DNA from: a virus
Strand: one strand, 5' to 3'
Length of the DNA stretch: 64,000 bases
Virus record (IMG/VR): IMGVR_UViG_3300046007_012472
Coordinates: 1-64,000 of that record
This document shows, in pieces, positions 456-5,189 of the stretch. A program made the translations under genes and the position numbers. The notes under the pieces were generated by a model that worked only from the letters and a program-made list of their open reading frames with translations, was not told the origin of the DNA and did no database searches. Each line of letters opens with the position of its first letter. Within the stretch, counting starts at the first letter, position 1.

Positions 456-528
456 GGCTCGGTAGACCAACGGCAGAGTCAGTGGACTCAAAATCCATAC
501 AGTGTGGGTTCGAATCCCACCCGGGCTA
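456..528 (+). tRNA. tRNA-Leu(CAA), short variable loop
   Basis: Anticodon arm GTGGA-CTCAAAA-TCCAT; T arm GTGGG-TTCGAAT-CCCAC; acceptor GGCTCGG/CCGGGCT. Confidence 0.9.
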
Positions 529-550
529 TTTACATTTTTTCTCACGAATT

Positions 551-580
551 GGGTCCAATAAAATTGGACCCTTTTCTTTT
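551..580 (+). terminator. intrinsic terminator after the tRNA pair
   Basis: GGGTCCAAT-AAA-ATTGGACCC hairpin followed by TTTTCTTTT. Confidence 0.8.
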
Positions 581-586
581 GGTAAT

Positions 587-2719: not shown

Positions 2720-3106
2720 GTGACTTCCGATAAAGTTCGTAAATACATTGATATGGCATATCCGATCTGCTTGGATATCGAGCGGCAAAAAAAGCATGTC
2801 TCGATTATCCTTCACAAGAAGCGAGTCGTTGGAGTAGGCACGAATTCCTTTGGCTCTACTCATCCGAAGGCTAAGCAGATCGGATATCCATACGATGAGA
2901 TGCATAGCGAATTAAATGCTCTTCTTCGCGTGGACAAGGGACTTCTCAAGAAGCGACCGAAGCTTGACTTGATCAATGTCCGGTTTAACCGTTTTGGTGA
3001 ATTGAGAATGTCCCGTCCATGCGATAAGTGCATGCCGTGGTGTGAAGCCTTGTTCCGTACTATATGGTATACTACTGATGAAGGTATCTTCAAGTTGAAA
3101 GAATGA
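2720..3106 (+). CDS. zinc-dependent cytidine/dCMP deaminase-fold protein
   Basis: HSE and SRPCDKC zinc/catalytic motifs; GTG start with GAGG RBS. Confidence 0.8.
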   Translation: MTSDKVRKYIDMAYPICLDIERQKKHVSIILHKKRVVGVGTNSFGSTHPKAKQIGYPYDEMHSELNALLRVDKGLLKKRPKLDLINVRFNRFGELRMSRPCDKCMPWCEALFRTIWYTTDEGIFKLKE

Positions 3107-3122
3107 TTACATAAATAAAAAT

Positions 3123-3446
3123 ATGAAATCATTCAAAGCATTTATTCTAGAACAAGATTCTCCTTTTTGGTGGATGAGAATGGCTATGGGTCAAGGAGAA
3201 TATTCGGCACAACCATTTAGAACACTTGCACCTCAAAACTCATATACCTATGATGGTGGTGTAGAAGTTGCAAGTTCTCGACCCGCAAATGTACAACCTG
3301 CAAGAGTACAACCTGCAAGAACCCAACCGGCAACACATTCGCCCGCTTCGACCAGAGTATCAAGTGAAATTAATTCATCAAATTTAGAATCATCAGAAGG
3401 CCAAACTGATAAATTTAAAAGAACGACAGCATTCGAAACAAGATAA
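3123..3446 (+). CDS. late hypothetical protein, possible internal head protein
   Basis: TAAATA 5 nt before ATG; MKSFKAFILE N-terminus; VQPAR repeats. Confidence 0.65.
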   Translation: MKSFKAFILEQDSPFWWMRMAMGQGEYSAQPFRTLAPQNSYTYDGGVEVASSRPANVQPARVQPARTQPATHSPASTRVSSEINSSNLESSEGQTDKFKRTTAFETR

Positions 3447-3463
3447 ATTTATGGAGATATATT

Positions 3464-3620: not shown

Positions 3621-3872
3621 ATGTTCCGATTGTTCATCGATATTCCGATCTCCGCAATCAACACGGAGCATGCTGTTGAACAAGCTCAAGGTCTTGTCAA
3701 CAAAATGATTCTTAATGATGATATGCAACAGCACTTCAAGTCTGTAAATATCGAGCAAGTTAATTATCGTCTTGGTCATGATGAGGATCGACAAAAGTCA
3801 AATTACTTCATGATTGATGATAATGGTCATTGTTCAACAAAGAAGACAAAAGTGACAATTGCTGTTGAATAG
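3621..3872 (+). CDS. hypothetical protein
   Basis: 83 aa ORF in operon; VNYRLGHDEDRQKSNY. Confidence 0.7.
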   Translation: MFRLFIDIPISAINTEHAVEQAQGLVNKMILNDDMQQHFKSVNIEQVNYRLGHDEDRQKSNYFMIDDNGHCSTKKTKVTIAVE

Positions 3873-3940
3873 GGATTGGTGTAACGGTAGCACCTTTGAC
3901 TTTGGATCAAATTGTCTAGGTTCGAATCCTAGATCCCTAG
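3870..3940 (+). tRNA. tRNA-Gln(UUG)
   Basis: Anticodon arm TTTGA-CTTTGGA-TCAAA; acceptor TAGGGAT/ATCCCTA; starts on the TAG stop of the upstream ORF. Confidence 0.92.
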
Positions 3941-4249
3941 TTATAAATTACTAGTGATATGATGTAATTTAGCTTGTAATTCTCTTAACTTTTCAGCATG
4001 AAAATTTTGATAAGATCCAGAAGTTAATCTGGAAGTGTCTCCACTTGCCATTCCCCATCCTTGTAACTGTGATGTATGATGAGAAATTTGTTGTCTTAGG
4101 TAATCAACATGCAAATCTACTATTTTAGGATCGCTTCCTCTATACAATTTTCCTTTAATTGGATTTGCTTCTAAAGGTGGCAAATCTTCTTGAGGGGTTT
4201 CTAATGCCTCTCTTAGAGCAGTTTTTATTATGTCTAATCTGGATCTCAT
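3941..4249 (-). CDS. late hypothetical protein
   Basis: TATAAATA at 4268-4275 (minus) and AAGGA RBS upstream. Confidence 0.65.
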   Translation of the reverse strand: MRSRLDIIKTALREALETPQEDLPPLEANPIKGKLYRGSDPKIVDLHVDYLRQQISHHTSQLQGWGMASGDTSRLTSGSYQNFHAEKLRELQAKLHHITSNL

Positions 4250-4281
4250 GCGTAAATTCCTTTTAAATATTTATATAACAG

Positions 4282-4309
4282 TTGACATCTGAATATTCTC
4301 TGGTATAAT
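4282..4309 (+). promoter_or_regulatory. sigma70-type early promoter
   Basis: TTGACA-N16-TATAAT with TGn. Confidence 0.85.
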
Positions 4310-4341
4310 ATGGATGTTGGGACGGGAGTGTTGAATTTGAC

Positions 4342-4412
4342 GCGCCGAGGGCGGACAGTTTCGCAGGGGTGCTTATAACACCCTCAAGCCCGGGCAGCAC
4401 GGGATCGGCGTA
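4342..4412 (+). tRNA. non-canonical tRNA-Ile(UAU)-like element
   Basis: Acceptor GCGCCGA/TCGGCGT + A; D stem GCGG/TCGC; anticodon arm GGGTG-CTTATAA-CACCC; T arm CCCG-GGCAGCA-CGGG without TTC. Confidence 0.7.
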
Positions 4413-4417
4413 TTCTT

Positions 4418-4681
4418 ATGAAAAAGTATTATGCAATCGACGCAGGAAACGAGAATTACCTAAGTGATACGATATATCAAGACAACTCTGCTCGGACTGG
4501 CACTCTGCTTTATTCTAAAAAGTCAGATGCTCTTGAATGTCTTGAAGAGATGGAAAGCATCTGCAAGTATATGAAACGCAAGAGTACATACAGCATGAAT
4601 AAAGTTCAAACGATGGATGGTCCTGTGATTGTAGACGGAGTATGGCATGAACGACTCAAGGGAAACTCGAAATCTAATTGA
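4418..4681 (+). CDS. hypothetical protein
   Basis: 87 aa ORF between the tRNA-like element and the methyltransferase. Confidence 0.6.
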   Translation: MKKYYAIDAGNENYLSDTIYQDNSARTGTLLYSKKSDALECLEEMESICKYMKRKSTYSMNKVQTMDGPVIVDGVWHERLKGNSKSN

Positions 4682-5189
4682 TCATTATCACTATTGGAAT
4701 CATGATGCTATTCTCGCTGAACTTGATTCTCGCAGGCATAATTTTAGCGTTCTTTGTTGCAATCTTTACAATGACTTTAATATTGCAAGCGTTATACGGA
4801 ATGCAAACGCTTTTCTCGCTTCCGAAGTATTACTATATGGGTCCAAGCAGTTTGACCGCAGGGGCACGGTTGGAACCCATCATTACACTCGATTCCGACA
4901 CCTACCTTCGTATGACGATGTGCGAGCGTACTTGTCAGATAAATTCGTGGTCGGAATCGATAATGTTCCCGACTCGAAGCCTATCGATGAATTCGATTGG
5001 CCTACCGATAAGCATGTTGTGATGGTCATGGGGCAGGAACAGGTGGGTGTTCCTATGGAGATTCTTGACATCTGTGATGTCACTCTTTATATTAAACAAT
5101 ACGGTTCTGTACGAAGCCTTAATGTAGCATGTGCGAGTTCAGTTGCTATGTACGATTATTGTAGTAAAACGATAAAATCAGGTGTTTAA
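4647..5189 (+). CDS. SpoU/TrmH-family SPOUT RNA 2'-O-methyltransferase
   Basis: NIASVIRNANAF motif 1, VMGQEQVGV motif 2, IKQYGSVRSLNVACA motif 3. Confidence 0.92.
   Translation: MNDSRETRNLIDHYHYWNHDAILAELDSRRHNFSVLCCNLYNDFNIASVIRNANAFLASEVLLYGSKQFDRRGTVGTHHYTRFRHLPSYDDVRAYLSDKFVVGIDNVPDSKPIDEFDWPTDKHVVMVMGQEQVGVPMEILDICDVTLYIKQYGSVRSLNVACASSVAMYDYCSKTIKSGV

Follow-up and report, generated by a model that had tools for sequence, protein, structure and literature searches.

A phage tRNA-Ile(UAU) gene with a remodelled elbow as a probable reader of AUA codons

Introduction

Can a transfer RNA (tRNA) whose D- and T-loops depart from those of ordinary elongator tRNAs still be used to read AUA codons? 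This question is raised by a tRNA-Ile(UAU) gene located at positions 4342-4412 of the window, i.e., the whole stretch of 64,000 nucleotides analyzed here, which covers positions 1 to 64,000 of the virus record IMGVR_UViG_3300046007_012472. The complete record (76-kb, estimated 35% complete) contains T4-type replication genes and a DNA polymerase ~50% identical to the enzymes of Synechococcus myophages and, on account of both features, we assign it to an uncultured T4-like phage. In the reading that we favor, with a probability of roughly 60%, the gene would encode a working AUA decoder, namely a tRNA-Ile(UAU) from a compact tRNA lineage of T4-like phages. No account of phage or bacterial elongator tRNAs bearing these loops was found in the published literature (full text).

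Structure of the gene

The gene has the organization of a 7/5 cloverleaf in which two bases, G8 and G9, separate the acceptor and D stems. The acceptor stem is formed by GCGCCGA (4342-4348) and UCGGCGU (4405-4411) and comprises 7 bp including G1.U72, and the D arm (4351-4364) consists of the stem GCGG/UCGC and the six-base D-loop ACAGUU, followed by a single A. The anticodon arm (4366-4384) combines a six-pair stem (GGGGUG/CACCCU) with the loop CUUAUAA, which presents the anticodon UAU at 4374-4376. After a variable region of three bases, CAA, the T arm (4388-4404) pairs GCCCG with CGGGA (4388-4392 x 4400-4404, the outer pair being G.A) around the T-loop GGCAGCA (4393-4399). The discriminator is A73 (4412) and CCA is not encoded, as is also the case in the neighboring tRNA genes; the mature 3' end is predicted to read ...GGCGUACCA. 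The preliminary description of this locus had reported a cloverleaf with anticodon UAU, discriminator A, no U8 and the loops ACAGUU and GGCAGCA, and each of these statements proved right, as did the consensus sigma70 promoter that it placed ahead of the gene, for which a full match and a TG extension were found (Table 1).

When folded in isolation, the 71 nt adopt the cloverleaf both as the minimum free energy and as the centroid structure (-30.9 kcal/mol, z -2.45), a signal that is modest if taken alone. Leader, tRNA and start codon folded together (4316-4440) did not perform better than shuffled sequences (z +0.34), and an alternative fold involving leader and tRNA is hence not proposed.

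Compared with a canonical tRNA, the four arms are in place with a 7-bp acceptor and a 5-bp T stem, and the anticodon loop has seven nucleotides, U33 and a purine at position 37, as in all the homologues presented below. At the elbow, G19, C56 and G53-C61 are kept and the conserved bases G18, U54, U55 and A58 are all lost, G18 being changed to A and the three others to G. U8, expected with A14, is G8 in the whole lineage, A14 itself being present. Regarding charging, the determinants used by Escherichia coli isoleucyl-tRNA synthetase (IleRS) include A73, the anticodon, position 37 and C4-G69 (PMC9976931). A73, A35, U36, A37 (the t6A site), A38 and C4-G69 are all found in the window tRNA; minor elements are incomplete, with G-C at 12-23 and a D-loop too short for an alignment with G16, D20 and D21, which are editing determinants.

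Homologues and covariation

Loci containing the neighboring SpoU methyltransferase gene were gathered (63 loci, L002-L064), and viral and metagenome contigs were then scanned with patterns derived from the D arm, the anticodon loop and the T-loop, a first pattern based on the D arm only having returned mostly chance matches in GC-rich phages. Sequences not forming a cloverleaf were removed (L191/L201, L198 and L204, i.e., three sequences from four loci, together with L248 and L254), L219 was excluded as an ordinary-looking tRNA in another register and L314 was kept out on account of its 4-nt variable region. The resulting alignment (A2) comprises 40 homologues, all distinct and taken from contigs of uncultured phages and of metagenomes, the sources of the lineage being chiefly lake and other freshwater samples.

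These homologues have a common scaffold. The acceptor is of the GCGC or GGGC type (one starts with ACGC), G8 and G9 lead to the D stem GCGG/UCGC, and after one A comes an anticodon stem of 6 bp whose outer pair is an invariant G.U and whose loop is CUUAUAA. The variable region measures 3 nt and the T stem 5 bp, and A73 precedes U or C, CCA being absent from the gene. Their signature, to which the window gene conforms, can be written as GGGCGG, 6-7 nt, TCGCAG and then an anticodon arm with CUUAUAA. CUUAUAA and A73 occur in 40/40 sequences, as do A35-A38, and 38/40 contain C4-G69. All the cells of the acceptor, D and anticodon stems are paired (100%), and 89.5% of those of the T stem, whose pair 49-65 is G.A, A.G, C-G, U-A or U.G. 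Double changes were recorded for 15 pairs out of 25 counted, a first set of 11 sequences having given them for 13 of its 22 stem pairs, and compensatory changes were found in three of the four stems, the D stem never varying. None of 500 shuffles reached the observed covariation score or percentage of pairing, and controls with slid partners were ~35% paired. Since the stems are held with compensatory changes across the homologues, with shuffles and slid controls far lower, chance and decay are excluded, and the alignment identifies the window gene as a real, conserved descendant of an ordinary AUA-reading isoleucine tRNA. A homologue search with covariation had been set beforehand as a test of the gene, and the conservation of anticodon and stems left the claim standing.

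The family is also defined by its distribution. The covariance model R1 gives 93 bits to the window gene, 64-76 bits to members of the scaffold with a canonical elbow and 34 bits to the allele of L002, its range on canonical tRNA-Ile(UAU) genes being 24-76 bits. With a pattern leaving the anticodon free, the window-type elbow was found in 23 viral contigs, with the UAU anticodon only. A strict, exact pattern of the window-type D arm and T-loop had no match in 185,579 bacterial and archaeal species genomes (one genome each), which is weak evidence of absence. When the region and two family members were compared by blastn with 50,697 deposited phage genomes, no homologue of the element was returned and no cultured carrier was identified. 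Over the element, the exact window sequence, with zero differences, is present in lake-water DNA runs of three different studies.

A decaying pseudogene or a chance cloverleaf could be suspected from the rejection of the gene by standard tRNA finders and from a z-score of just -2.45. This idea is hardly credible in front of 22 distinct window-type sequences distributed across dozens of contigs, with identical copies in independent lake samples, loops that are near-invariant and stems that compensate; a true decayed remnant located directly upstream provides the contrast, and we consider this explanation ruled out by the covariation counts.

Coordinated exchange of the elbow bases

The elbow of the 40 homologues occurs in four states (Table 2). 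Canonical members of the lineage such as L017 (1548-1618), L010 (2924-2995) and L019 (1307-1378) share with the window type the anticodon loop, A73, the GCGC-type acceptor, the GGCGG/UCGC D stem, the 6-bp anticodon stem with its outer G.U, CAA and the 5-bp T stem. They differ by G18G19 and the T-loop UUCRAYY and are called by ARAGORN, as tRNA-Ile(tat) for these three; with A18 and GGCAGCA instead, the window type escapes its calls. They also occupy, like the resident allele of L002, the same slot, i.e., promoter, tRNA and then an open reading frame (ORF) or the SpoU gene. These canonical relatives already carry an odd scaffold, with G8, a 6-bp anticodon stem, a short D-loop and a 3-nt variable region.

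Table 2. Elbow states of the tRNA-Ile(UAU) lineage
Type	Distinct sequences	D-loop	T-loop	Bases 54/58	Loci
A (canonical)	9	AYGGYU(U)	UUCRAYY	U/A	
B (window type)	22	ANAGNU	GGCAGCA	G/G (G/A once)	
C	4, plus L314	ACGGCU	AUCAACA	A/A	L220, L227, L280, L303
D	5	AAAGUU	AGCRUUA	A/U	L224, L228, L230, L284, L300

In tRNA structures, the elbow relies on U54 paired with A58 (trans Watson-Crick/Hoogsteen), on U55 with G18, on C56 with G19 and on G53-C61, and an A54-A58 state is known from the eukaryotic initiator tRNA (PMC7912444). G18 is associated with U55 in 13 sequences (types A and C) and A18 with G55 in 27 (types B and D), mixed combinations being absent. With respect to the canonical type, type B has thereby exchanged G18.U55 for A18.G55 and U54.A58 for G54.G58, positions 59 and 60 becoming C and A, and its T-loop is GGCAGCA or a single-base variant of it (GGCAACA, GGCAGAA, GGCGGCA) in 22/22 members. 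As the partners 18/55 and 54/58 change together, the loops did not drift; rather, interacting partners were exchanged together and each state then remained near-invariant while the stems vary. This agrees with the earlier proposal that a coordinated loop change with intact stems reflects a functional alternative elbow and not decay. We treat the coupled tertiary changes as strong mechanistic evidence and not as statistics, because independent events are probably few and types B and D may share a single 18/55 change.

G19-C56 and G53-C61 are invariant in all sequences (40/40) and, with these pairs kept, the L-shape can in all likelihood still form in the window type. A Watson-Crick pair 54-59, which would convert the T-loop into a tetraloop, is possible as G-C in type B and as A-U in type D; type C (A54) and the GGCAGAA variants lack this complementarity. 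In the type B member L103, the T stem is identical to that of canonical members, and its predicted EF-Tu contact region therefore need not differ from theirs.

Replacement of a canonical allele

The loci L002-L006 are close relatives of the window, with a SpoU protein 97-100% identical and shared flanks of ~85-93% DNA identity. Between the homologous promoter and the 87-aa ORF, they carry an ARAGORN-called tRNA-Ile(UAU) with G18G19 and the T-loop UUCGAAU, this canonical resident allele being located at 2697-2769 in L002. In the window, GTTGGGACGGG (4316-4326, 11 bases) is identical to the start of the canonical arrangement in L002 and L004, from which the sequence then diverges, and the 5' part of an earlier canonical gene persists in the leader (Table 1). 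Since the canonical gene sits at the same site in relatives and the window keeps its 5' remnant, the comparison indicates that the window gene came by recombination and took over the promoter of a canonical tRNA-Ile(UAU), which it replaced. In L267, a metagenome contig of the same lineage, a window-type gene with one base different is found right behind the promoter, with no remnant.

One lake run yielded a contig unchanged through 3913-4453 together with another one joining 3942 to 4416, and in a contig of another lake run the loose end reads the 3' end of a canonical tRNA. As contigs of window and canonical haplotypes turn up in the same lake metagenomes, both alleles coexist in the same waters, the tRNA-Ile slot being polymorphic within phage populations. 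Cassette exchange between related phages, the two alleles being functionally interchangeable, would be the simplest account.

Detection by gene finders

ARAGORN in bacterial mode did not call the window gene even at 40% of its threshold, lowered thresholds giving a spurious antisense call and nothing else; its tmRNA (transfer-messenger RNA) mode made no call over the element, and the metazoan-mitochondrial mode was the sole one to report the gene. In bacterial mode, ARAGORN called 9/9 type A sequences and 0/31 non-canonical ones (B 0/22, C 0/4, D 0/5). The Rfam tRNA model RF00005 did not match the window gene, neither at the gathering threshold nor at E<=10, and the matches of other Rfam models near the element, to microRNA and small RNA families, were at chance level and irrelevant. 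It had been anticipated that standard scanners may miss the gene, which holds for both programs. At E<=10 the Rfam tRNA model also misses the two type A members tested (L017 1548-1618 and L010 2924-2995), and the canonical allele of L002 (2702-2769) obtains 33 bits. As even type A is missed by Rfam, the whole lineage is atypical: its D-loop and variable region are short, its anticodon stem is long and position 8 is G. For annotation by covariance models, its ordinary-elbow members are thus borderline too.

Decoding of AUA and other possible roles

If the gene is a decoder, its own early-type sigma-70 promoter would drive transcription, giving a leader of ~25-nt; host enzymes for tRNA processing would release the tRNA, the host would add CCA and its IleRS would charge the tRNA by recognizing A73 and the anticodon loop. 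The phage, which is AT-rich and has ATA as its commonest isoleucine codon, would in this way be supplied with AUA decoding. Processing, CCA addition, charging and use by EF-Tu and the ribosome are steps that we infer. ATA indeed represents 44% of the isoleucine codons of the window phage (31.6 per 1000 codons), bearing out the abundance noticed in the preliminary description, and 40% in the relative G002; by contig, its share is 0.31 with type B vs 0.25 with type A and is thus no lower in type B. ARAGORN detected no tRNA-Ile in the 125-kb relative G002, a complete genome with terminal repeats, nor in the 76-kb partial record of the window phage, where it reports seven tRNAs (Lys-UUU, Leu-CAA, Gln-UUG, Arg-UCU, Gly-UCC, Glu-UUC and Asn-GUU). 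In five phage records, three with terminal repeats and one rated 100% complete, R1 at E<=10 found this gene only, and the sole tRNA-Ile of the complete relative G002 is, by these searches, of this gene type. In other phages a canonical tRNA, namely tRNA-Lys(UUU) in L012 and L021, starts 3-4 nt downstream of the gene, and the type C-like gene of L314 ends with ACCA within a cluster whose tRNAs encode CCA.

Several points weigh against a decoding function. U54, U55, G18 and A58 are near-universal in elongator tRNAs, and U8 is here replaced by G8. The best-known bacterial tRNAs with G55, the staphylococcal tRNA-Gly, show poor binding to EF-Tu and to ribosomes, and function in making the cell wall instead of in translation (PMC7826273). 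E. coli IleRS charges a UAU tRNA poorly and a UAU tRNA misreads AUG on E. coli ribosomes (PMC3575796). In the sole metatranscriptome run, contigs cover the reverse ORF and the SpoU gene and none covers the tRNA, which is uninformative either way. Finally, the tertiary co-changes may derive from few evolutionary events and are suggestive rather than statistical proof.

It could be asked whether the gene produces a tRNA-shaped RNA with a role outside ribosomal decoding. Such an RNA could be a decoy or sponge for a host factor that binds the AUA-reading anticodon loop, such as an anticodon nuclease or another tRNA-targeting defense, or could, once charged, donate isoleucine to a non-ribosomal transferase; its altered elbow would keep it off EF-Tu and the ribosome. 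Such a role would be in line with the conservation of the anticodon loop and cloverleaf and with changes affecting exactly the elbow bases read by the translation and modification machinery; it has a precedent in the staphylococcal non-proteogenic tRNA-Gly, which have G55, lack pseudouridine and are excluded from translation (PMC7826273), and phage tRNAs are known to counter tRNA-targeting defenses (PMC10264068, PMC11464382, PMC11555353). We nevertheless hold it to be unlikely: the gene replaces the canonical decoder at its locus instead of being added alongside, it is the sole tRNA-Ile in complete genomes heavy in ATA and its T stem can equal that of canonical relatives. In addition, no gene for a Fem-like or other aminoacyl-tRNA transferase adjoins it in the loci read, no systematic search having been made, and the known cases of evasion alter the anticodon loop, which is untouched here.

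Assuming that the RNA does decode AUA, one may tentatively view its elbow as the target of an arms race, in which translation-competent variants have shed U54, U55, G18 and A58 to escape a nuclease, a toxin or a modification enzyme recognizing the universal corner of T-loop and D-loop. The factor evaded would belong to the host or to a rival phage, cassettes would be swapped between phages, and at least three non-canonical solutions (G54.G58 with A18.G55; A54.A58; A54.U58 with A18.G55) would each be fixed in their own clade. The elbow surface is read by RNase P, the CCA-adding enzyme and the ribosome. The changed bases are also the substrates of TrmH (Gm18), TrmA (m5U54), TruB (pseudouridine 55) and TrmI (m1A58) (PMC7912444). 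Several conserved alternative states exchanged between phages would fit an escape from an elbow-recognizing factor; known tRNA evasion by phages, however, changes the anticodon loop instead (PMC10264068), and a duller cause of the elbow change would be that constraint was relaxed in a scaffold already compact.

Comparison with known tRNAs

Compact or unusual tRNAs are found in several systems. tRNA-Pyl combines an anticodon stem of 6 bp and a variable region of 3 nt with a small D-loop, and lacks GG and T-psi-C; animal mitochondrial tRNAs have a compact core and depart from the universal elbow rules. Allo-tRNAs of the 8/4 or 9/3 type occur in bacteria and phages and are functional in E. coli (PMC5389517). 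The window gene belongs to the 7/5 branch, with both stems supported by covariation, and not to the 8/4 or 9/3 types; it further differs from these three groups by the two bases linking acceptor and D stems and by the retention of G19 and C56, and has no sequence relation with them. The tRNA-Ile2 of Mycoplasma mobile has an ordinary elbow. It shares with the phage gene the unmodified UAU anticodon and a reading of AUA that is independent of TilS, and IleRS and ribosome are co-adapted to it in this organism (PMC3575796), whereas in the window phage the tRNA body is altered.

The non-proteogenic tRNA-Gly of Staphylococcus share G55 (UGC or UGU for UUC in the T-loop) and an altered D-loop, and themselves lack pseudouridine; they exist in addition to proteogenic paralogues, have T-stem pairs that make EF-Tu binding weak and supply Fem transferases (PMC7826273). 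In contrast, the phage gene is present in a single copy per genome, with no extra paralogue, and stands in for the sole AUA decoder; judged on gene sequence alone, its T stem can equal that of canonical members. The eukaryotic initiator tRNA has a purine-purine 54-58 combination, and type C (AUCAACA) contains the same A54, A58 and A60 (PMC7912444). The initiator keeps G18 and U55, whereas the window type, an elongator-type phage gene, has G54/G58 and A18/G55. As for the phage tRNAs escaping defense systems, they similarly differ from host tRNAs at functionally read positions (PMC10264068, PMC11464382, PMC11555353); their changes affect the anticodon loop or stem, whereas the window gene changes the elbow and keeps a canonical anticodon loop.

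Neighboring genes and transcript

Table 1. Features around the tRNA-Ile(UAU) gene (window coordinates)
Feature	Position	Strand	Remarks
tRNA-Gln(UUG), canonical	3870..3940	+	upstream neighbor, common to relatives
102-aa ORF, no assigned function	3941..4249	-	inserted between tRNA-Gln and promoter
sigma-70 type promoter	4282..4309	+	TTGACA 4282-4287, 16-nt spacer, TG-extended TATAAT 4304-4309; 12/12 match
Decayed 5' remnant of earlier canonical tRNA-Ile(UAU)	4319..4340	+	acceptor strand GGGACGG and D-arm-like stretch, now in 5' leader
Non-canonical tRNA-Ile(UAU) gene, window type	4342..4412	+	71 bases; R1 covariance model 93 bits
87-aa ORF, no known family	4418..4681	+	ATG 6 nt after discriminator, no Shine-Dalgarno; predicted to be co-transcribed with tRNA
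SpoU/TrmH-like RNA 2'-O-methyltransferase gene	4647..5189	+	PF00588, E 1e-23

Transcription is predicted to start at ~4316, and a homologous promoter precedes the tRNA-Ile gene in L002, L004 and L267. The 87-aa ORF also follows the canonical tRNA-Ile in L002-L006. In the window, the discriminator is followed by UUCUU and then AUG, and UU AUG stands directly 3' of the discriminator in many relatives of all elbow types (L002 2769-2775; L075, L103, L162 and L206). As the discriminator adjoins UU AUG without a Shine-Dalgarno sequence, 3' processing of the tRNA would leave a nearly leaderless messenger RNA (mRNA). This arrangement, found right behind the promoter in many members, could mean that the element is mainly a processing signal in a 5' untranslated region, cut by RNase P and 3' tRNA nucleases to leave a near-leaderless UU-AUG mRNA. 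We regard such a purpose as improbable: it does not need an invariant CUUAUAA and A73 nor a near-invariant C4-G69 in 40 sequences whose stems vary, and several members precede another tRNA or a spacer with no ORF. It is moreover not exclusive of the decoding of AUA that we favor.

The SpoU gene, for which 63 related loci were gathered, shows linkage to tRNA-Ile(UAU) genes across this phage group, whatever the elbow type, and directly follows the tRNA in some phages (L103, L007 and L010), its start being sometimes <=10 nt from the tRNA. The best full-length NCBIfam match of the protein is TrmH, below the curated cut-off, and its closest solved relatives are the Gm18 methyltransferases 7edc, 1zjr and 1v2x. 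Because the window-type tRNA is without G18, this predicted enzyme, if acting on it, must use a site other than 18.

The 102-aa ORF is absent from all the related loci fetched and belongs to no Pfam, PHROG or NCBIfam family, low-confidence structural look-alikes only being obtained; with no family and no homologue in these loci, its designation as a homing or mobility gene was rejected. A lake metatranscriptome contig matches 4090-4251 exactly. Another small indel of the tRNA region is the stretch 3104-3462, which includes a 107-aa ORF (3123-3446) and is missing from L002-L006, where the flanks abut.

Permuted two-piece tmRNA genes (RF04321; tmRNA* in ARAGORN) occur in related contigs, namely L017 (4860-5142), L228 (6129-6437), L033 (4204-4523), L038, L041 and L044, and may hint at the host group; the one inspected, in L033, has an ordinary GGUUCGAAUCC T-arm. 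The likeness of GGCAGCA to the T-loop of alphaproteobacterial tmRNA, put forward in the preliminary description, is unsupported. In L314, an uncalled tRNA-like stretch ending with ACCA (499-585, minus strand) lies between the type C-like tRNA-Ile and a tRNA-Lys, in a dense cluster of CCA-encoding tRNAs, and contains a canonical GGAGUUCGAUCCUCC T arm and CUACAAA, which resembles an anticodon loop.

Significance

Few nucleotides are as conserved as U54, pseudouridine 55, G18 and A58, which are the sites of the near-universal modifications m5U54, pseudouridine 55, Gm18 and m1A58. Here, a natural and conserved family of phage tRNAs swaps these elbow bases in a coordinated manner and keeps G19-C56, canonical and intermediate relatives being available for comparison. 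It hence constitutes a natural experiment on what the tRNA elbow needs, on the dependence of bacterial processing, charging and decoding on those bases and on the alteration of tRNA bodies by phages to escape host factors. Since tRNA finders miss the non-canonical members of the lineage, and some canonical ones, phage tRNA repertoires and the analyses of codon compensation that rely on them are biased. The scaffold could also serve to obtain orthogonal tRNAs. Should the arms-race view of the elbow be true, bacterial RNase P, the CCA-adding enzyme, IleRS, EF-Tu and the ribosome would tolerate the loss of highly conserved bases.

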